64,000 bases of DNA from Bdellovibrionota bacterium (GTDB taxonomy: Bacteria > Bdellovibrionota_C > UBA2361 > SZUA-149 > CAZDWZ01): the NCBI GenBank assembly GCA_046328905.1, contig JAXLVP010000001.1, positions 46,731-110,730 of the forward strand, written 5' to 3'. Both the position numbers and the translations under genes were made by a program. The notes below the pieces were generated by a model. The model searched no databases and was not told the DNA's origin. It was given only the letters and a program-made list of their open reading frames with translations. Shown piece after piece: positions 22,113 through 58,299 of the stretch (position 1 is the first letter of the stretch; every line of letters starts with the position of its first letter).

Positions 22113-22715
22113 ATGCAATACAGCCGCAAACACATTTTGCTCCTGAGCTTCCTGCTCGAAGGCTGTTTGACGTTGGTCTTTTTCGTTTGGGCCGCTTATC
22201 GTGGCATCACCTTCCCAATCTGTCCCGATTGGAATGAAGTTACCCTCGGGCTGCTCTTCTGCGCCCCTCTATTTGCGCTCAACTATTTACTGTTTGGACC
22301 GCTCAGTGAACGCGTTCCGTTTCTGCGTTCCTGCTACGAGTTCCGGGACCGGATTGTGCGTCCCCTGGCGGAAGCGCTCGACCTGTGGAGCAGTGCTGCC
22401 GTGTCGCTGTGCGCGGGTATCGGTGAGGAGCTTTTTTTTCGCGGGGTGATTCAGACGGAATTCGGCATCTTCGTGGCCAGCGTCTTTTTTTCGCTGCTTC
22501 ACTTCGGTCCGGCCGTTCGAAAATACGTCTTTATCGCCACTCTTTACGTTGGGATTGGTTATTATTTTGGCATTATTTGTCTTGGGAATCACAGCCTTTG
22601 GGTCCCGATCATCGCACATGCTGCGTACGACTTCATCGCGCTGCTCTACATACAGCGTTCGTCGTTTCCCTCCAGCGCGAACATTCACTCCAGTCGCGCG
22701 AGCTACTCGCTTTGA
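22113..22715 (+). CDS. CPBP family intramembrane glutamic endopeptidase (CAAX protease-like)
   Basis: Motifs GEELFFRGV (EExxxR), FSLLHFG (FxxxH), HAAYDF (HxxxD), multiple TM helices. Confidence 0.75.
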   Translation: MQYSRKHILLLSFLLEGCLTLVFFVWAAYRGITFPICPDWNEVTLGLLFCAPLFALNYLLFGPLSERVPFLRSCYEFRDRIVRPLAEALDLWSSAAVSLCAGIGEELFFRGVIQTEFGIFVASVFFSLLHFGPAVRKYVFIATLYVGIGYYFGIICLGNHSLWVPIIAHAAYDFIALLYIQRSSFPSSANIHSSRASYSL

Positions 22716-22885
22716 TGAGTTTGTCGTTTAACTAACTAAAAACTGCAGTAGCTTTTCGCGCCTCAAGCCGATTCATAAACATCAGAATGTTAGGAGTCGG
22801 TTTCTAAGATCATACGCTGAGAAACCGGCTGGCGTGAGAGCATCCGCTAGTTTACAGTTCAAATTATCGCGACGTTTTTTTTAAG

Positions 22886-23659
22886 GTGCAAAGTTTTGTG
22901 ATGAAGTTGCGAGAGCGGGTTTTCCAAACTTGTCTGCGCGCTTGTCTCCGGTGCCCACAATTTTTCCGACACCGTCATCCTTCGTGCACCTGCATCAGCC
23001 TCTTTCTTCTCTCTCTTCTCTCGCTCCCTTGCGCTGCACGTGCTGATGGTCCGCGCTCTGCTGCGGACCCGGCATCTCGCGCTCGGCTTTTCAACGGCAG
23101 CGCTTTTGTGAAAGCGGAGCAGCGGCACAGAGGCTCGCGAACCGAACGCCAAAGCAATTCCGATTTTGGAACGAGTGTCGTGAGCGACGCTGCGGAGCTC
23201 GACACGGTCACCGAAATTCTCGAGGACCATCGCAGCGGCGCCGACTTCTTTGCAGACTATCGCACCCCATTTTATCTCTCGTACGTCTCCGAGGTAGTGC
23301 CCATCGGAGATTTCGAAGATTGGGATTCTCGATCGACTGCCCAGAAGGTTTTTATTTATCAAGCCGCTACCACTCTCTCAAAAGCGATTGTGAACTCTGC
23401 TCTGGAACCGCTCTATCGAGACGTTCTGGATGGGCTTCGATGGTTCGGCGATTACACTTCGCTACGATTCAGACAGAAAGACGACGGCTCGCTCCGCGTG
23501 GGGAACACGAAGAGCGGTGAAAAGCCGCTGTTCGAGCTCAAGCTCAATGTGAGCGCGAACAACGGCGTCGAGCCGCGGTTAAAAATCGGCAGGGATTTCT
23601 GCCTGCGTTACGACGTAATTCACGATGAGACCGTGATGGAGTTTCGTCGTAATTTCTGA
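22886..23659 (+). CDS. hypothetical secreted protein
   Basis: Hydrophobic signal-like segment ISLFLLSLLSLPCAARA. Start uncertain (GTG 22886, or GTG 22898 / ATG 22901 after aaggtg). Confidence 0.45.
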   Translation: MQSFVMKLRERVFQTCLRACLRCPQFFRHRHPSCTCISLFLLSLLSLPCAARADGPRSAADPASRARLFNGSAFVKAEQRHRGSRTERQSNSDFGTSVVSDAAELDTVTEILEDHRSGADFFADYRTPFYLSYVSEVVPIGDFEDWDSRSTAQKVFIYQAATTLSKAIVNSALEPLYRDVLDGLRWFGDYTSLRFRQKDDGSLRVGNTKSGEKPLFELKLNVSANNGVEPRLKIGRDFCLRYDVIHDETVMEFRRNF

Positions 23660-32237: not shown

Positions 32238-33044
32238 GGTCTCGTCGTCCGGAAATCGGCTTCAATTCACAACAGCAGCATCGAGGCGCGCGCACAGTGG
32301 GGCGCTTGTGAAAACCTTTTGCGAACCGGTCTGACCGAGGAACCCGTCGGTTGTAAGCGGAGGTAACTGCGCTCGAGTGTCTTGAGGTGGGAGAAGAAAC
32401 TTCCCGTTTTTCACCGCGCGAAATGTGCTCGGCAGTGAACGATGGACACCGTTCGAGTACAGCAACTCAGAAGGGGGTGACCCCCCTTCAAGTCATTCTG
32501 TCTGCCGAGTGCGGGCTAAACAAGGGGCCGTTCGAAATTTTCGGTCGATGTGAGCTGCCGACGTCGATCCGAACGGTGTACGAGGTGAAGTACGGAGCTG
32601 AGGCTCCATGTCAGCAATTCACCCGAGCCGCGGCGTTCCGGGCCTATGCCTCGGTATCCACTCGCTTTGAAGAGTCGACCTTTTTCTTCGGCTCCTCGCG
32701 CTCGACCCGCTTTTCTGAGCGAGCTTCCTCGCTGCGGCGACTGGAAGATTCTGATGATTTTCGAGCGGCCTCGCTCGAATCCCTCGATCGTACTGCGTCG
32801 ATACCCATGGGCGATACTCCGTTATACGAACAATATCGGCCGTATTCCCGGAAGGTTAACAATCTGGGCCGGTCGAATCGACGGCGGTCTCGGAGGAAAA
32901 CAGCGAATTACCGGCTACTTACGCGATGTGGGAAGCTCGAAGACATCCGTGACGGTGATAAACGCGTGTGTTAGAGCGAATAGGAAGCGATACCGGGCAG
33001 CGAGCCCGGTTTATGTATCAATCGACCAACATTTTTGCGGTTCT

Positions 33045-33947
33045 ATGTGTTCGATGGCCACCGAATCTCAGATCCAAGAGCAAGCGGCGCCGCTCGGCGC
33101 CGAGGTTCGCACAGCACGACCGTTTCTCAAATGGGCCGGCGGTAAAACTGCTCTTCTTCCGGAGTTGCTCAAACGAGTGCCGAAGGATTTCAACGCATAC
33201 TTCGAACCGTTTCTCGGCGGGGGTGCGCTGTTCTTTGCTCTGGCGCCTGAGAAGGCGTTTCTCTCTGATGCCAACTCCGATGTGATCAACGTTTTTCGCG
33301 CTGTCCGCGACAAGTTGCCGGATCTCATTGCCAATCTCGCGAAGCATAGTCATTCGAAGCGCTACTACTACAAGCTGCGAAATCTCGATCGCGGATCAGA
33401 TTTCTGGGTGCTGAGCGATGTCGAGCGCGCAAGCAGGCTGATCTATCTGAATAAGACGTGCTTCAATGGATTGTATCGAGTGAACTCTCGTGGCGAGTTC
33501 AATGTTCCGTTCGGTGCGTACCAGAACCCAAAGTTCCTCGACCGTGAGAACCTTGAGAGCTGTAATCGTGTTCTCCAGAACGCGGACCTGAGTGTCGGCT
33601 CTTTTGAGGCTACCGCTGCGAATGCGAAGAGAGGTGATTTCGTCTACTTCGATCCGCCATACGCTCCGCTCAGTGAGACAGCCAACTTCACGAGTTATAC
33701 GAAAGACGGATTTGCGGATTCTGACCAAGTGACGTTGGCCGAGCTCTGCCGGACGTTGGATAAGCGAGGCGTAAAGTTCATGCTCTCCAATTCGGCGACG
33801 GACCGAATGAACGAGCTCTACAAGGATTTCTTGATTGAGACAGTGCAGTCGCCGAGAGCGATTAACTCTCGTGCAGACAGAAGGGGAAAGATCGCGGAAA
33901 TCATCGTGAGAAACTACGATATTGAACCAGATCTCGATGTCGACTGA
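33045..33947 (+). CDS. Dam-family (D12 class) DNA N6-adenine methyltransferase
   Basis: FLKWAGGK SAM-binding motif I and DPPY catalytic motif IV (FVYFDPPYAP). About 297-300 aa. Start at ATG 33045 or 33054; the upstream in-frame extension of ORF 32646.. looks non-coding. Confidence 0.8.
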   Translation: MCSMATESQIQEQAAPLGAEVRTARPFLKWAGGKTALLPELLKRVPKDFNAYFEPFLGGGALFFALAPEKAFLSDANSDVINVFRAVRDKLPDLIANLAKHSHSKRYYYKLRNLDRGSDFWVLSDVERASRLIYLNKTCFNGLYRVNSRGEFNVPFGAYQNPKFLDRENLESCNRVLQNADLSVGSFEATAANAKRGDFVYFDPPYAPLSETANFTSYTKDGFADSDQVTLAELCRTLDKRGVKFMLSNSATDRMNELYKDFLIETVQSPRAINSRADRRGKIAEIIVRNYDIEPDLDVD

Positions 33948-39615: not shown

Positions 39616-39762
39616 GACCGACCTATACGTGGTCGGGAGGCAAAAGTTCCATGATGCGGATCAGTTTTGGGGCAAGGGGACCGCGCGACACCGCAGGAGG
39701 CGAGTTAGTGGCAACGAGAGTTGCTACCAACCCTCTGACATGAACCGCAGAAGCACGTTGAC

Positions 39763-40071
39763 TTACACTGCTTCGGTCGCTAACGCTCTGATTTCGTCGA
39801 GTCGATATCCATGACGGCTATCGTAAGCACTTTCTTCTTCAACAGGAACCACCTCAGCTTGAACATGCTGCGAATCTGTCGTTCGATGCGCAAGCCAAGC
39901 GGGGCCCGATTGTTGCTGCTGTTGAAGCTGCTGGTAGCTGACTGTCAGGCGTTCGCGCTGCAAGTAGGGGTCAAATACCCACCGAGCGTTAGCGCTGCAC
40001 CCGCAGCCGGTTCCATCTTCCGAAGAAGCCGTGCCACAAGCGCCGCAATGTAATTTGGAGTCGTTTCTCAT
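39763..40071 (-). CDS. small Cys-containing hypothetical protein (~102 aa)
   Basis: Start at ATG 40071 with GAGGA RBS 7 nt upstream. LHCGACGTASSEDGTGCGCS motif, poly-Q stretch. Confidence 0.4.
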   Translation of the reverse strand: MRNDSKLHCGACGTASSEDGTGCGCSANARWVFDPYLQRERLTVSYQQLQQQQQSGPAWLAHRTTDSQHVQAEVVPVEEESAYDSRHGYRLDEIRALATEAV

Positions 40072-40422
40072 CAAAGATCCTCGTGTGAATTGAAGTTGCC
40101 ATAGGTGACAAAGGCGCGGACGCCTCTCTAACGTATGGTCGCTTCTGAGGACTTTGAAATCAGAACCGGAGCTCAAACCTTCTGTTCTCTCGTTACCACC
40201 AGCTAAACGGCGCAAAACGCGGTTTAGCGCATGGAAACAAGTTCCGACCTTGGGTGCGGGAAAGTATCATAGTGGGAGGACCGGTGCAAGAGTAGGAAAA
40301 CGGTGGGTTTTGCGAGGGGCCGGGAGGAGACAGCAAAGAGCAGCATGCCGCCAAAACGGCTCAATGAAGATTGATCGGGCAATGCCGCATTTCGTGTGTA
40401 GGCGAAAGCATTACCCGACCGG

Positions 40423-40869
40423 TCAGCCAGCCAATTGGCCAGGACCCATGTGATCGCGCGTCCAGTTATCATCGGGCGCGTCGACTGAACGAGCGCGCCG
40501 GTGCGCACGTAGGTCAACCTCGTCAAAATGTGCCTCGCAATCGGGGCAGTATTCTGACTTTCCGACGAAGCGGTTTTTGCAGTTTGAGCAACACCGTTCG
40601 TCTTTGAGGTCGTCCCATGTAACGTCCGGATCGGCGTCTGGTAGGCCAGCAAACTGCTGCTCCAGGCGCCAACGCTCGAGCGCGTCGGCAAGGCCGGCGC
40701 CGTGGAGGTCAGCTTGCAGCTGCTCCAGGGATTCCGTTGCGCGGGAGGCACGCAGCGACTCGTTGAGGACTTGGTCCTCGAGCCTAGCGATGCGTGTCCG
40801 ACCGAACGGATCGGCCAAGAAGCGAGCGACGGCGGCGAAAACAGCGATGAACGTGCGGATTGAAATCAT
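40423..40869 (-). CDS. hypothetical protein with N-terminal TM and C-terminal zinc-ribbon-like CC-x2-C...C-x2-C motif
   Basis: MISIRTFIAVFAAVARFLA hydrophobic N-terminus. ERCCSNCKNRFVGKSEYCPDCEAHF. Confidence 0.45.
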   Translation of the reverse strand: MISIRTFIAVFAAVARFLADPFGRTRIARLEDQVLNESLRASRATESLEQLQADLHGAGLADALERWRLEQQFAGLPDADPDVTWDDLKDERCCSNCKNRFVGKSEYCPDCEAHFDEVDLRAHRRARSVDAPDDNWTRDHMGPGQLAG

Positions 40870-40898
40870 GATCCTGTGATCCCTAAGAAAAAGTGAAA

Positions 40899-40950
40899 TT
40901 GGTTAGTTGCTGTAACAAGACCTCTCCATCCCGCTCCAGAAACTAACCAA
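40899..40950. promoter_or_regulatory. perfect 10-bp inverted repeat ttggttagtt ...32 bp... aactaaccaa, 30 bp upstream of the 40869 start codon
   Basis: Seen in sequence. Lies in AT-rich leader of the zinc-ribbon gene. Candidate operator or RNA hairpin. Confidence 0.25.
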
Positions 40951-41330
40951 CCGCTTCTCCGAGATTCGATGCGAACATGATCGAATGCTTTCAAAACCTC
41001 TTTGCATCTCACGATGCAAAAACCTAAATGAAACCTTAAAAATGCGGCATCGCACCGAGGGCAACCAACTCGTCAGCGGCTGCACACGGTGCAATGTTCT
41101 CTTGCTCACAATTCTGAGCAAAGGCTTTCTACCCGGTTCGAAGTGAAAAGATCCCGCCGCAATGAGAGCAGAGGTACTCGCGCGACCGTGATAAAGTTAT
41201 GCAAGATTCTCAGAATATAGGGTGTGGACTCCGATACATCAGGCAGTTAACTGGGCCAGTGAAACTAGCAATCGGGCTCTGCAAGGAGAATGTTTAGTCG
41301 TGCGGCGAATGAATAGCTAACGGTCTCGGG

Positions 41331-41594
41331 AGCGGTGAGCGGGAGATAGCAAAGCGGCTCATGTGAAACTCAATTACGAAAAGCGCACAAACTTGGGAAA
41401 TCACGTAGGCGGGTGAAGCGCCGACAAGGCGCAGAGGGCGCCAGCCCTGGGCCGGAGCGGTGAGCGAGAGATCGCAAAGCGGCTCATCTGAAATTCAAAA
41501 ACGAAAAGCGCACAAACTTGGGAAATCACGTAGGCGGGTGAAGCGCCGACAAGGCACAGAGGGCGCCAGCCCCGGGCCGGAGCGGTGAGCGGGG
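41331..41594. repeat. tandem direct repeat, 125-bp unit x 2.1 copies (41331-41455, 41456-41580, partial 41581-41594), abutting the 3' end of tRNA-Ala
   Basis: Unit agcggtgagcg[g/a]gagat[a/c]gcaaagcggctcat[g/c]tgaaa...aaaagcgcacaaacttgggaaatcacgtaggcgggtgaagcgccgacaaggc[g/a]cagagggcgccagccc[t/c]gggccgg. Copies are about 93% identical. Not CRISPR (no spacers). Confidence 0.7.
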
Positions 41595-41598
41595 AATA

Positions 41599-41671
41599 TG
41601 GACCCGATCGGGATCGAACCGACGACCTCGTGAATGCCATTCACGCGCTCTCCCAGCTGAGCTACGGGCCC
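41599..41671 (-). tRNA. tRNA-Ala (anticodon GGC)
   Basis: Reverse complement GGGCCCGTAGCTCAGCTGGGAGAGCGCGTGAATGGCATTCACGAGGTCGTCGGTTCGATCCCGATCGGGTCCA folds as cloverleaf. G3:U70 Ala identity pair, anticodon loop ATGGCAT, T-loop TTCGATC, discriminator A. CCA not encoded. Confidence 0.85.
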
Positions 41672-41735
41672 GGATTGCGCCAAGCAGGGGGCCTGGCGGA
41701 GGTAGAGATTTAGCATCAGGCTCAGCGGAAGACAA

Positions 41736-42128
41736 CTACTTCGGGGGAAGCCGGCTCAGTCGCTGCATTTTGTCATACAACGAATGTAATTTCTTCTGCT
41801 GCTCCGCGTTTAATACGGGGTCCAAGTCGCGGATGGCCTGGTCGAGTATCGCCTCCATCTCCGGTTGGTGTGACCGGCGGAGCTCGATGACCTTCAGGTG
41901 ATATTCAGTTACGATTTTCTCAATCTGTTGTGATTGCTCCGCTGTCGGGTGAAGCTCGGAGTCCAGCTTGTGCAAAAGTACCCGTCTTACCGCTGGCGGA
42001 CCTTCGTTGATGATACCGAAGAACCAACGGGAGTAATAGATCTTCGTTCCGGCGCTACCGACAACTGCGCCAAGGGAGAATACAACGAGCACTCCGAACC
42101 AGATTCTCAACTTTTGTCGAAGGGTCAT
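41736..42128 (-). CDS. periplasmic Spy/CpxP-like protein (LTXXQ motifs), membrane-anchored
   Basis: N-terminal TM/signal, motifs LHPTAEQSQQIEKI and LNAEQQKKL. Start overlaps previous gene stop (42125-42128). Confidence 0.55.
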   Translation of the reverse strand: MTLRQKLRIWFGVLVVFSLGAVVGSAGTKIYYSRWFFGIINEGPPAVRRVLLHKLDSELHPTAEQSQQIEKIVTEYHLKVIELRRSHQPEMEAILDQAIRDLDPVLNAEQQKKLHSLYDKMQRLSRLPPK

Positions 42129-42424
42129 AACGAAAGCTCCATCTGGACGGTCCCGTGCGTTTCGATTGTAAGGAGCGCTTCGAGAGCCAAATCGTTCGAC
42201 GGCGCAGAAATCAGGGCGTACGTGAAAACCGCCGCTGCAACGATCGACCCTGCCGACGCGAATTTCCAGAGCGCTTGTCCAAAGTATACAGACTCGTCAA
42301 CCGACTGAGCGCTCACCGACTCCATGACAGCTGCGGCGAACTGAGCGCCGAGCTCGGGAGAGCGTTGGTTGCGAAAGGCCAGTATCAGCTCAGATTCAAG
42401 CTTATCAATATCCTTCCGTTTCAT
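42125..42424 (-). CDS. putative anti-sigma factor (small single-TM protein)
   Basis: 99 aa from ATG 42424, immediately after sigma factor stop. One TM near C-terminus. Assignment by position only. Confidence 0.4.
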   Translation of the reverse strand: MKRKDIDKLESELILAFRNQRSPELGAQFAAAVMESVSAQSVDESVYFGQALWKFASAGSIVAAAVFTYALISAPSNDLALEALLTIETHGTVQMELSL

Positions 42425-42426
42425 AT

Positions 42427-43014
42427 TCAACTCCGTCCTGCGTCTATGAGCGATTCTAGGATCTTTCGAAGGTGTCCCCGTGCGCGGTGTGCGCGCACTT
42501 TTACGTTTACCAGGCTCCATCCAAGTGTCTCCGCTGCCTCTCGAACCGTTCGGCCCTCGAGATGCACGAGCGTTACCACTGCTCGGTTTTCAGGGCTCAG
42601 CCCATCGAGCGCACGGGCGAGAAGATCAGCGGCGATTCTCTGCCGTTCGGAGGAATCGAACGCTTCAATACTTCCGGTCACGAGGAGCGACTCGATGAAG
42701 CCGGATTCTTCGGTACTGAGCTGACACGGAATCGGTTCAGGACGGTGGTAGCGGTCCCGCCAGTAATCGTAGCACTCACGAACCGCGATCTTTTTCACCC
42801 AGTGCGAGAATGGGCTCTCTGCGCGATAGCTGTCAAGCGAGCGGAAGGCGCGAACGAAGGCGTCGTGGCAGACCTCTGCTGCGTCTTGCGGCGGGATTCT
42901 GCGGGAGACGACAGCCATTACTTCGTTCTTCGTGCGTTCTACCAATATGCGAAACTGATCGACGTCTCCCCGGACGATCGCCCTCACAATCTCTTCGTCC
43001 GTGAGCGTTCCCAT
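42427..43014 (-). CDS. RNA polymerase ECF-type sigma-70 factor
   Basis: Region 2 (...AAEVCHDAFVRAFRSLDSY...FSHWVKKIAVRECYDYWRDR) and region 4 HTH (LSPENRAVVTLVHLEGRTVREAAETLGWSLVNVKVRAHRARGHL). Start ATG 43014 preferred over GTG 43068. Confidence 0.8.
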   Translation of the reverse strand: MGTLTDEEIVRAIVRGDVDQFRILVERTKNEVMAVVSRRIPPQDAAEVCHDAFVRAFRSLDSYRAESPFSHWVKKIAVRECYDYWRDRYHRPEPIPCQLSTEESGFIESLLVTGSIEAFDSSERQRIAADLLARALDGLSPENRAVVTLVHLEGRTVREAAETLGWSLVNVKVRAHRARGHLRKILESLIDAGRS

Positions 43015-43118
43015 CGGAGAGGTTCGTATCCTGTCACGCGGTTGAAACTTGCGCCCGGTGGTGCTCACCCGGGCGCACAGCGAAAATTCGTATCGAGCGA
43101 CGGTTCGAATGCCGTCGG

Positions 43119-43628
43119 TCAGGACTGTGCATTCGCGTCAATCCAGTCGTCGAGCAAAGTCCGCAGCTTCTCGATCCGATGCTCAATACGGCCTTCAATT
43201 TCATTCTTCAAGCCGGAAAGCTGTTGCTTCTGATCTTCGCTCAAGACAGCTCGGATCTGGCTCACCGCTTTGGCGCGTGAGACCGCAAGCTGTTCCTCTG
43301 CTGCGGCAACCGCCTTAGCAGAATCTCTGACAAGCTTTTCATCGAACGTATCCTGATGAATTGCGTTGAAGAGCTGCTTATGGGCTTCAATGAGGGTGTC
43401 CACCTCAGGGCGTATCTCAGGGCGATTTTCCTTCATCACTGTTGCAATCCGAGACTTCTGTTCGGACTTGAGGTCGAGCTTCGTGAGGTTGCGCATCACG
43501 GTTAGAAAAGGTGCGCCGGCGGGGGACAGCTCCTCAATCGAAAATTGCGGCGAAGCCAGGGCCATGGTTCCGCAGAATACCGGGATCGCGCACGCCGCTG
43601 CAAGCAATGAGACAGCAACACGTTTCAT
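43119..43628 (-). CDS. periplasmic Spy/CpxP family chaperone-like protein (LTXXQ motifs)
   Basis: Signal peptide MKRVAVSLLAAACAIPVFCGTMALA. LKSEQKSRI and LSEDQKQQL motifs. Confidence 0.65.
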   Translation of the reverse strand: MKRVAVSLLAAACAIPVFCGTMALASPQFSIEELSPAGAPFLTVMRNLTKLDLKSEQKSRIATVMKENRPEIRPEVDTLIEAHKQLFNAIHQDTFDEKLVRDSAKAVAAAEEQLAVSRAKAVSQIRAVLSEDQKQQLSGLKNEIEGRIEHRIEKLRTLLDDWIDANAQS

Positions 43629-51382: not shown

Positions 51383-51476
51383 TGCGAGGGACCGTCTCAA
51401 AAGGCCAATCTTGTGTGGCCCAAATCAAATATAGGTCAGTTCTACCGTGAGCTGCTCAGAAGCGGCAAGGAACAAA

Positions 51477-51550
51477 CGCGCCCAGCAGGACTCGAACCTG
51501 CAACCTACAGCTTAGAAGGCTGTTGCTCTATCCAATTGAGCTATGGGCGC
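51477..51550 (-). tRNA. tRNA-Arg (anticodon TCT)
   Basis: Reverse complement GCGCCCATAGCTCAATTGGATAGAGCAACAGCCTTCTAAGCTGTAGGTTGCAGGTTCGAGTCCTGCTGGGCGCG folds as cloverleaf. Anticodon loop CTTCTAA, T-loop TTCGAGT, 7-bp acceptor stem. Confidence 0.85.
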
Positions 51551-57257: not shown

Positions 57258-58299
57258 GCTCACTCCGACCTTCTCGCTGCTTGGACTCGCAATCCTATTC
57301 TGGAGCGCCGCTGCCGGCCTGAGCAGTCAGCTGGGAGCTCCGAAGGGGGCGGCGGGCGGTTCGTCACACGGCGGAAAAGCCGCCGCCGTTGCGCTGAGCG
57401 ACGATCTCAAAGCGCTGAAAGCGGATGCCGACGCTCATCCGGACCGAACGGATGCGCGCTTGAATTTTGCGAATGCGGCCAGAGAGGAAGCCATCCAGAA
57501 AACAGATAACGGCCTGCTGATGGAAGCAGTGCAGGCATACACTGCGGTCCTGGCCAAAGAGCCGAACCAAACTCAGGCGCTGCTCGGTCTCGCCTCGCTC
57601 TGCTTCGAGGCCGGCATCATGGACAAGGCTCAGGAGTACTACCGCCGCTATTTGCAGCTCAAGCCCGACGACCTTCGCGTGAAGACGGATTACGCGCTCT
57701 CCCAGATCCAAACGGATGCGCTTGACGACGCGCTCGTTACGCTGAACGAGGTGATTAACAAAGACCATTCAATCTTCCAGGCGCATCTCGCTGTCGCCCT
57801 GGTCTACAAGCTGCAAGGAAAGACGGACGAAGCGAAAGCGAAGGCGGACGAAGCGAAACGTCTTGCACCATCTGACGCCGACCGAGCGAGAATCGATGAG
57901 TTCCTCACTTCGCTGACAGCGAAGGCGGCAGCCGGACAGCAGAGGGCGGAGCTCCCGCCGTCAGCGATTCCGGGAACACCTGGTGGCGAAGAGGGGGAGG
58001 GATCGATCGCTCCGGAGGATCTGTCTCCGGCAGGGATGGTATCGCAGTTCTTCGCCAGCCATCCGATAGTCGGCCCCAAGCTCAAAGGGATTGCGTGGCC
58101 GGAGCTCAACACGGCGATTGTTCGCCTGGAGAACTTCCCAGTAGACCAGATGCCGCCGTTTGCCCGCGAAAAATTCCTCGGCTCGATGAAGCAGAAGTTA
58201 TCGGGTCTGCCGAACAAGGTTACGGTCAAGCTCGTGGACGCTGATTCGGGCGCGGAGCTTCTGACGGTAGAGGCGGGAGGAGAGAAGCCGGCGTCCTAG
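57247..58299 (+). CDS. secreted tetratricopeptide-repeat protein
   Basis: Signal peptide MHSKLTPTFSLLGLAILFWSAAAGLSS. TPR-like repeats (AVQAYTAVLAKEPNQTQALLGLASLCFEAGIMDKAQEYYRRYLQLKPDD...). Start overlaps oxidase stop by 11 nt. Confidence 0.6.
   Translation: MHSKLTPTFSLLGLAILFWSAAAGLSSQLGAPKGAAGGSSHGGKAAAVALSDDLKALKADADAHPDRTDARLNFANAAREEAIQKTDNGLLMEAVQAYTAVLAKEPNQTQALLGLASLCFEAGIMDKAQEYYRRYLQLKPDDLRVKTDYALSQIQTDALDDALVTLNEVINKDHSIFQAHLAVALVYKLQGKTDEAKAKADEAKRLAPSDADRARIDEFLTSLTAKAAAGQQRAELPPSAIPGTPGGEEGEGSIAPEDLSPAGMVSQFFASHPIVGPKLKGIAWPELNTAIVRLENFPVDQMPPFAREKFLGSMKQKLSGLPNKVTVKLVDADSGAELLTVEAGGEKPAS

Follow-up and report, generated by a model that had tools for sequence, protein, structure and literature searches.

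The question raised by this locus is what the tandem repeats are that follow a tRNA-Ala(GGC) gene without a gap, and whether they, or the AT-richer spacer between them and the next gene, do anything. Positions refer to the whole stretch of DNA analyzed, 64,000 nucleotides, hereafter the window. The 3' end of the tRNA lies at 41599, the island lies downstream of it in the tRNA sense, and the relevant features are the following.

41599..41671, minus strand: tRNA-Ala(GGC), 73 nt (ARAGORN; Rfam RF00005, 60 bits), with a G3:U70 pair and no encoded CCA
41579..41598, minus strand: 20-nt direct repeat TATTCCCCGCTCACCGCTCC, a partial third copy of the array and the first in tRNA sense, flush with the tRNA 3' end
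41454..41578, minus strand: tRNA-proximal full 125-nt unit (TRF and repeat search)
41329..41453, minus strand: tRNA-distal full 125-nt unit (TRF and repeat search)
40953..41328, no strand assigned: unique lower-GC spacer with no credible ORF (GC 48%; no Pfam match for any ORF)
41102-41121, no strand assigned: 20-bp palindrome TTGCTCACAATTCTGAGCAA in the spacer (repeat search; fold z = -2.3)
41057-41035 and 41030-41000, minus strand: two weak hairpin plus U-tract sites in the spacer (terminator scan and folds)
40877..40952, minus strand: long imperfect hairpin of about 22 bp, then the U-rich tail AAUUUCACUUUUUCUU (fold and inverted repeat)
40423..40869, minus strand: 148-aa orphan gene bounding the island, with a hydrophobic N-terminus and a CxxC...CxxC motif

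The array (41329-41598) is composed of a 20-nt repeat, 105 nt, a 20-nt repeat, 105 nt, and a 20-nt repeat, giving a period of 125 nt, and it is the sole long tandem repeat in the 64 kb. A preliminary description of this DNA had reported head-to-tail repeats of 125 bp, 2.1 copies, with approximately 93% identity; TRF returned the same period and copy number over 41329-41591, with 94% matches, 0% indels, and a score of 470. That description also had the array ending 4 bp from the tRNA. The adjacency stands and the gap does not: TRF leaves 7 nt, and the third partial copy (20 nt, 90% identity) reaches 41598, so that the array is flush with the tRNA end. The trailer of the tRNA, read from the sequence, opens with TATTCCCC. 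The repeat search found three copies of the 20-nt direct repeat at 125-nt spacing and 90% identity, and their 13-nt core, CGCTCACCGCTCC, occurs three times in comparison to an expected 0.36. The two full units differ at 8 of 125 positions (four transitions and four transversions, ∼6% divergence); on the basis of these eight substitutions, the duplication is real and not recent. A 40-nt core of the unit has two exact matches in the window (0 expected), and the identical core shared by both units extends over 55 nt (P = 0.07 linear, 0.11 circular). Since this length is within chance, it provides no evidence of constraint. The tRNA-sense strand of the array contains 66% pyrimidine, 10% A, 36% C, and 24% G (C/G = 1.5), and no other 270-nt stretch of the window is as strand-asymmetric as the array.

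The in-register similarity stops at the tRNA-Ala end. As already stated in the preliminary description, the unit holds no tRNA sequence: Rfam finds none in the repeats at E<=10, and blastn detected no similarity to the tRNA or its leader. Only two tRNAs were found in the whole window at the Rfam gathering threshold, and the second one, Arg-TCT, likewise has no encoded CCA. The missing CCA was therefore rejected as a mark of rearrangement at the tRNA-Ala junction, and its absence looks genome-wide.

The unit was sought elsewhere in several ways. The 64-kb window contains no second copy by blastn, by a 40-mer search with three mismatches, or by use of the 13-nt repeat core. Exact 21- and 22-mers of the core gave 0 matches in GTDB representative genomes and 0 in IMG/VR, and the JGI metagenomes yielded 0 and then 2 chance matches in unrelated coding DNA without flanking similarity. 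Plasmids and phages searched with blastn in "distant" mode had no match to the unit. Of 123 fetched loci whose tRNA shares the 22-nt 3' end, 0 had a downstream flank similar to the unit by nhmmer, and 120 GTDB loci sharing that 3' end showed neither synteny nor a similar flank. The neighboring ECF sigma gene offered another route to related loci; its best non-self homologue is 57% identical, and the two ECF-sigma contigs that were fetched (L005, sigma 56% identical; L006, 53%) carry no tRNA after the operon, its place in L005 being taken by a protein gene. A tRNA-linked repeat family, as had been proposed, thus finds no copy in the window, GTDB, JGI, IMG/VR, plasmids, phages, or the 123 tRNA flanks. 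The preliminary description had held that a unit found only here would speak for a nonfunctional duplication. A unit found only here is indeed the result for the 64-kb window and for databases that lack this lineage and, with its uniqueness resting on that scope, it points to a nonfunctional duplication.

Direct examination of the array gave no RNA-family, structure, promoter, terminator, or coding signal. A search of the island with all Rfam families, on both strands at E<=10, returned only the tRNA apart from subthreshold microRNA-precursor (mir) hits at 40897-40952, which reflect hairpin shape only. When the array and single units were folded as RNA, in either strand, the z-scores were -0.5, -0.35, +0.1, and -0.05, equal to shuffled sequence. 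No hairpin plus U-tract terminator lies inside the units (41329-41598); the U-rich run that each unit contains is not immediately preceded by a stable stem, and the repeat search found no inverted repeat lying wholly within the array. With respect to the two small hairpins described earlier for each unit, ggcg-cttcacc-cgcc is present in both copies and gcga-tctc-tcgc is intact only in the tRNA-proximal one. The earlier suggestion of a small RNA or terminator module, duplicated and transcribed together with the tRNA, is not borne out by these results, with no Rfam match, a folding z of ∼0, and no unit with a hairpin followed by a U-tract. A scan for sigma-70-like promoters, limited to that type, found none in 40700-41900. 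The absence of a credible ORF from the island was upheld; the longest are 72 and 79 aa, the latter starting inside the tRNA. Ten island ORFs had 0 Pfam matches at E<=1, and the codon-position GC of the island ORFs is not gene-like. No ORF is conserved between the two copies, and the 42-aa plus-strand ORF of the proximal unit is interrupted in the distal unit, where codon 7 is a stop. To catch copies that might have been annotated as spurious ORFs, the array was translated in all six frames and the translations were joined into a single chimeric query for a search of 5.8 billion protein clusters; this query had no match, which is a weak negative.

Between the array and the next gene, the 459 bp at 40870-41328 have 48.1% GC in comparison to a window mean of 57.0%, within the lowest 0.3% of 460-nt windows. 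The AT-richness noted before for the first 460 bp is therefore real but moderate. One other comparably low-GC patch is present in the window (∼22.4-23.0 kb), and a moderate drop of this kind is typical of an intergenic or promoter region. The inverted repeat at 40899-40950, previously given as a perfect 10-bp one, proved stronger than stated, with arms of 14 nt at 93%. It forms part of the hairpin at 40877..40952, which on the minus strand has a predicted energy of -27.8 kcal/mol (z = -4.6; stability equaled in 0 of 200 shuffles) and a U-rich tail separated by 8 nt from the ATG of the 148-aa gene. Folding makes it look like an intrinsic terminator or attenuator, in the tRNA-sense strand only, and the hairpin plus U-tract sites downstream of the array all have the tRNA-sense orientation.

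The 148-aa protein is identical to the NCBI hypothetical protein U0136_00355, and no other homologue was found among 5.8 billion clusters or 1.84 billion representatives. Its gene has a gene-like, native-looking codon-position GC. It had been named the zinc-ribbon gene; the zinc-ribbon Pfam matches for 40423-40869 fall below the gathering score. Neighboring ORFs were scanned with Pfam, 13 on the downstream side of the tRNA (23.8-40.9 kb) and 5 on the upstream side (41.7-44.4 kb). They contain PLD, VTT, TMEM175, hydrolase, DnaJ, Dam-type methylase, histidine kinase, and other domains, with no integrase among them. The genes flanking the array on both sides lie on the same strand. Lower GC and the orphan gene next door are the sole hints of an integrative-element scar at this locus.

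We conclude that the array is probably a lineage-specific, neutral tandem duplication of the DNA directly after tRNA-Ala(GGC) and that the lower-GC 460 bp are an ordinary regulatory or terminator spacer ahead of the next gene; we assign this joint explanation a probability of approximately 60%. For the route of duplication, the transcription of the array, and its termination, we infer the following. In the ancestral trailer, one copy of a 20-nt direct repeat would have adjoined the tRNA and a second would have lain 125 nt farther on. Through unequal recombination or replication slippage, this pair of repeats would then have led to duplication of the 105-nt intervening segment, after which the two copies would have diverged by 6%. 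Transcription of the tRNA would continue through the array, making it the 3' trailer of the precursor, and the trailer, because no CCA is encoded, would be cut off after the discriminator base and then degraded. Transcription could be stopped by Rho acting on the pyrimidine-rich, C>G, unstructured RNA of the array, or it could be stopped at the downstream hairpin plus U-tract sites (41057-41000 and, most strongly, 40952-40877). The case for Rho is weak because classic rut sites contain less G than the 24% found here. The layout is exactly that which unequal exchange between short direct repeats yields, in register and with no indels. Set against this explanation, one edge of the array falls exactly on the tRNA 3' end. 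Random slippage within a 730-bp spacer would seldom hit that position, and the tRNA end or its processing site may therefore have been involved. Tandem duplications of such size are usually lost quickly, and the retention of both copies for long enough to diverge by 6% could reflect selection. As it stands, the array adds one example to the low-copy tandem duplications of bacterial intergenic regions and is of little importance.

Retention of both copies at 6% divergence also bears on the alternative that each unit is a small RNA, processed from the tRNA-Ala precursor and duplicated, that acts in trans, for example as an sRNA sponge or protein-binding RNA. The layout is like that of E. coli tyrT-tyrV, where tandem units lie 3' of a tRNA on the tRNA strand and rttR is annotated; 3'ETS-leuZ is a proven functional tRNA trailer (PMC8166272); and with the array flush with the tRNA end, cleavage at the discriminator would give a defined 5' end. 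RtT itself barely beats its shuffled fold (z = -1.06), and a weak folding z-score therefore does not exclude a small RNA. However, no Rfam family, RF00391 included, matched at E<=10, the folding z is ∼0, both units lack a terminator or any other signal for a 3' end, and the differences between the copies are not compensatory, with one small hairpin broken in the distal copy. No homologue of the unit exists in the collections searched, and hence there is no covariation support. We regard a small RNA as unlikely, and slightly less likely still the more specific proposal of a previously undescribed trans-acting sRNA of the RtT/3'ETS kind in this uncultured lineage, labeled Bdellovibrionota, cut from the tRNA-Ala precursor and with its two diverging copies retained by selection for dosage or two specificities. 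A stable RNA from each unit, if true, would be a second, independent repeated functional tRNA trailer, and it would suggest that small RNAs arise repeatedly in the 3' flanks of tRNA genes. Similarly doubtful is the explanation that ∼39.6-41.6 kb is a remnant of DNA inserted at the tRNA-Ala 3' end, made up of the repeats, the lower-GC spacer, the 148-aa orphan gene, and a doubtful 150-aa ORF, in which the 20-nt repeats would be degenerate copies of the attachment site. The 3' ends of tRNAs are classic integration sites, and the first 20-nt repeat begins exactly at the tRNA end. The GC content is 48% at 40870-41328 and 51-55% at 39700-40300, a search of 1.84 billion representative proteins yielded no homologue of the adjoining 148-aa gene, and the related ECF-sigma operon in L005 is followed by a protein gene instead of a tRNA. 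A duplicate of the 22-nt tRNA-Ala 3' end is nevertheless missing, at up to three mismatches, from the 64 kb, of which 41.6 kb lie downstream of the tRNA. The repeats are free of tRNA sequence, and the neighbors scanned encode no integrase, transposase, or phage domain. The 148-aa gene has a native-looking codon-position GC, no plasmid, phage, or viral matches were obtained, and the 105 nt between the supposed attachment sites are far too small for an element. With this unduplicated tRNA end and no mobile domain in the neighbors examined, the scar of a lost integrative element, put forward in the preliminary description, has no positive support. A tRNA-like fragment at 57669-57705 was considered as an attachment-site partner and rejected; it lies inside a 380-aa ORF, and Rfam sees no tRNA there.

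We consider it very improbable that the array is a cis-acting DNA element, either tandem protein sites or promoters for the 148-aa gene or an origin-like module of repeats and AT-rich DNA. The repeats do adjoin an AT-richer stretch, and the spacer has operator-like palindromes (41102-41121 and 40899-40950), but the array is 460 bp from the 148-aa gene and no sigma-70-like promoter was found. Upstream of the neighboring ECF-sigma operon there is a GAACC...TTCG pattern, which is a by-eye reading only, and a by-eye comparison of those upstream regions with the unit revealed no counterpart that might serve as an ECF-type promoter. A replication origin was rejected: DnaA boxes are not enriched (19 found in the window versus 15.6 expected, none in the island), and the cumulative GC skew is monotonic across the window, without inflection, with co-oriented flanking genes. 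That the duplication is an assembly artefact is scarcely credible. The source is a metagenome-assembled genome (a 3.26-Mb contig), and an independent short-read Logan contig breaks inside the tRNA, in the anticodon loop, short of the array; a second Logan contig covers the PLD gene only. Artefactual duplications are normally identical, whereas the two copies here differ at eight positions with no indels, and the first Logan contig matches the window base for base up to its end in the tRNA.

The neutral duplication that we favor can be compared with several known systems. PrrF1/PrrF2 and OmrA/OmrB are tandem paralogous sRNA genes, each with its own promoter and intrinsic terminator. They share with the array an intergenic, head-to-tail arrangement of two near-identical units of ∼100-150 nt, whereas neither a promoter nor a terminator was detected in the units described here. 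Thirteen E. coli tRNA transcripts end at unstructured Rho-dependent terminators that are later removed by exonucleases (PMC2190699). Like the regions after valV-valW, leuQPV, and other such tRNA operons, the array is unstructured and has no intrinsic terminator inside, and it is itself richer in C than in G; unlike them, it is tandemly repeated, and its G content (24%) exceeds that of typical rut sites. In the glyW-cysT-leuZ operon, the 3'ETS-leuZ trailer is freed during precursor processing and serves as a small-RNA sponge (PMC8166272). It is 53 nt long, is single-copy, and includes an intrinsic terminator, in contrast to the two 125-nt units without a terminator in the array.

The tyrT-tyrV locus of E. 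coli (NC_000913) contains 3.1 tandem units of 178 bp with 95% identity by TRF and encodes RtT RNA (RF00391; genes rttR and tpr). Both loci have low-copy units of 100-200 bp on the tRNA strand that start at the tRNA 3' end, with 94-95% identity and no indels. The E. coli array overlaps the tyrV 3' end by 19 nt, whereas the present unit has no similarity to its tRNA; four E. coli units score 133-137 bits against RF00391, whereas nothing in 40300-42300 of the window does so at E<=10; and the pyrimidine content is 66% here versus 47% in E. coli. Early-1980s literature on the tyrT locus from the Landy laboratory is said to have found that transcription enters the repeats and ends by a Rho-dependent mechanism. 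Judged from sequence, the resemblance of the array to tyrT/RtT is one of layout only and not of family membership, and its only curiosity is that it repeats this classic layout with unrelated sequence.

The tRNA-Ala(GGC) gene and all of its neighbors lie on the minus strand, in the order thioredoxin-like, Spy/LTXXQ-like, ECF sigma factor, 131-aa ORF, 130-aa LTXXQ-like, tRNA-Ala(GGC), the non-coding island (40870-41598), a 148-aa ORF, a doubtful 150-aa ORF, and a phospholipase-D-like gene. The island is therefore downstream of the tRNA in the tRNA sense. The elements that frame it are the following.

41599-41671, minus strand: tRNA-Ala(GGC), identified by ARAGORN and Rfam
40877-40952, minus strand: hairpin and U-rich tail, identified by folding against shuffles
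40423-40869, minus strand: 148-aa gene, which bounds the island

The preliminary description of the island was correct in all essentials, as judged by TRF, GC, ORF, and in-register checks. The reported 125-bp tandem repeat was recovered by TRF as an array at 41329-41591 (period 125, 2.1 copies, 94% matches, no indels), and the window contains no other long tandem repeat. In-register comparison showed that a partial third copy reaches 41598, so that no gap separates the array from the tRNA 3' end; three 20-nt repeats alternate with two 105-nt segments. The two full copies differ at eight positions (four transitions and four transversions), which rules out a trivial assembly duplication, and the length of a 55-nt difference-free stretch between them is within chance (P = 0.07-0.11). 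In the tRNA sense the array is 66% pyrimidine and 10% A with a C/G ratio of 1.5, and it is the most strand-asymmetric 270 nt in the window. The array was assembled in the source MAG alone; in an independent short-read assembly of this organism (Logan, SRR26348422), the contig breaks off in the tRNA anticodon loop, at window position ∼41636. The identical sigma factor is present in sample ERR14790673, so at least two public runs carry the organism.

With this anatomy and all of the negative results established, the array most likely arose within this lineage, when the 3' trailer of the tRNA was duplicated in tandem. The 20-nt direct repeats would have served as the sites of unequal recombination or slippage. 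The trailer would probably be transcribed together with the tRNA, cleaved from it behind the discriminator base, and then degraded, with termination that may be Rho-dependent or may occur at downstream hairpins. The Rho-dependent mode is possible because the RNA is unstructured with C > G; 13 E. coli tRNA transcripts have unstructured, C > G RNA with Rho-dependent termination (PMC2190699).

A functional role for the array is kept alive by the exact coincidence of its edge with the tRNA end and by the retention of both copies for long enough to reach 6% divergence, but the RNA-family, folding, promoter/terminator, and coding tests provided no evidence for one. A permissive Rfam scan of the island on both strands matched the tRNA alone and no known RNA family, the array, whole or as single units, folded with energies equal to those of dinucleotide shuffles (z of −0.5 to +0.1), the region scanned contained no sigma-70-like promoter, and the units themselves contain no hairpin with a U-tract. 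These results give no support to the earlier suggestion of a small RNA or terminator module. The T-rich stretch that had been pointed out is indeed a U-rich run, but no stable stem directly precedes it. Among the island ORFs there were no Pfam matches, no ORF is common to both copies (a stop interrupts the counterpart of the 42-aa plus-strand ORF of the proximal copy), and six-frame translation of the array matched no called protein among 5.8 billion protein clusters. A replication origin was also ruled out, as DnaA boxes are not enriched and the GC skew does not turn.

Copies of the unit were sought more widely. No others occur in the window, and nothing was found in GTDB, IMG/VR, plasmids, or phages; a GC-rich 22-mer matched twice in JGI, both times inside unrelated coding sequence without flanking similarity. 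Scanning GTDB with the 22-nt 3' end of the tRNA-Ala yielded 120 loci with 127 tRNA ends, four of them labeled Bdellovibrionota, Bdellovibrionales, or Bdellovibrionaceae. By blastn and nhmmer, 123 downstream flanks showed no resemblance to the island, a tandem repeat of period ≥20 is present in only three of them (none abutting the tRNA), and the neighboring genes of the window are absent from all of these loci. The proposed tRNA-linked repeat family thus did not materialize in the window or the collections. The collections searched contain no close sequenced relative of the lineage, and the GTDB representatives exclude this genome. An encoded CCA is present in all four Bdellovibrionota-labeled genomes with the identical tRNA 3' end and in 39 of the 123 flanks, for which TTA (two flanks) is the only one of the twelve commonest opening triplets not starting with C. 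In the window, CCA is absent at both tRNAs (41596-41599 and 51474-51477; flanks TAT and TTT), and because the second tRNA also lacks it, a local rearrangement was ruled out as the cause.

The remainder of the island (40870-41328, 459 bp) has a GC content of 48.1% versus 57.0% for the window, within the lowest 0.3% of 460-nt windows, which bears out the AT-rich part described earlier, and the reported lack of a credible ORF agrees with the missing Pfam matches. The sole other patch of such low GC (47-48%) is at ∼22400-23000. Two weak hairpin and U-tract sites occur downstream of the array at 41057-41000 on the tRNA-sense strand. The 10-bp inverted repeat noted at 40899-40950 is present and proved to be part of a stronger, long imperfect hairpin at 40897-40952 on the minus strand (−27.8 kcal/mol, z = −4.6, 0/200 shuffles as stable), followed by the U-rich tail AAUUUCACUUUUUCUU. 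The tail stops 8 nt short of the ATG of the 148-aa gene, so no promoter would fit between this element and the gene. From its sequence, the element resembles an intrinsic terminator or attenuator, in the tRNA-sense orientation only, that could end the tRNA transcript or control read-through into the 148-aa orphan gene. A 20-bp palindrome at 41102-41121 (TTGCTCACAATTCTGAGCAA; 7-nt arms, 6-nt center) looks like the putative operator of a dimeric regulator.

The lower GC of the island and the adjoining orphan gene would fit the scar of an integrative element at the tRNA-Ala 3' end, as had been considered, but we found no evidence for one: the tRNA 3' end is unrepeated throughout the window, including 41.6 kb downstream of the tRNA, the scanned neighboring genes encode no integrase or other mobile-element domain, and the codon-position GC of the 148-aa gene is gene-like and native-looking. 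At 57.7 kb, a stretch weakly similar to a tRNA falls within a 380-aa ORF, and the similarity was attributed to chance. The N-terminus of the 148-aa product is hydrophobic, and a CxxC...CxxC motif is present; 5.8 billion protein clusters and 1.84 billion representatives, the latter searched in full with HMMER, gave no match other than the protein itself. The 150-aa ORF (39763-40215, minus strand), between the orphan and phospholipase-D-like genes, has no Pfam match and a non-gene-like codon-position GC (0.61/0.50/0.48); therefore, the gene-poor tract downstream of the tRNA may be ∼2 kb (39616-41598), broken by the orphan gene only.

For the ECF sigma factor, the next best homologue after an identical protein is only 57% identical. 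The four-gene set at 41736-43628 (minus strand; Spy/LTXXQ-like protein, ECF sigma, small ORF, LTXXQ-like protein) is kept in identical order in a distant metagenomic relative (sigma factor 56% identical), with a protein gene where the window has the tRNA. Elsewhere, a D12-class (Dam-like) adenine methyltransferase (32646-33947, plus strand, 433 aa) has a ∼160-aa N-terminal extension without a Pfam match, and no restriction enzyme was recognized among its scanned neighbors.

Trailers can have a role, as for the functional leuZ 3' spacer (PMC8166272); the array would share with it the position of a tRNA trailer. The closest analogue is E. coli tyrT-tyrV, in which a 178-bp unit is repeated 3.1 times from the tRNA 3' end with 95% identity and no indels, and which is annotated with the small RNA rttR and the peptide gene tpr. 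Each tyrT-tyrV unit is an RtT element (133-137 bits) and includes the last 19 nt of the tRNA, whereas the 125-nt unit contains no tRNA sequence and does not match RF00391, so by sequence comparison RtT-type membership fails on two defining features. There is no evidence of function, family, or mobile-element origin for the array; the feature is real, was correctly described, and is ordinary: a tRNA 3' flank duplicated in tandem at low copy number, which is a known kind of feature, with the layout seen at tyrT-tyrV.
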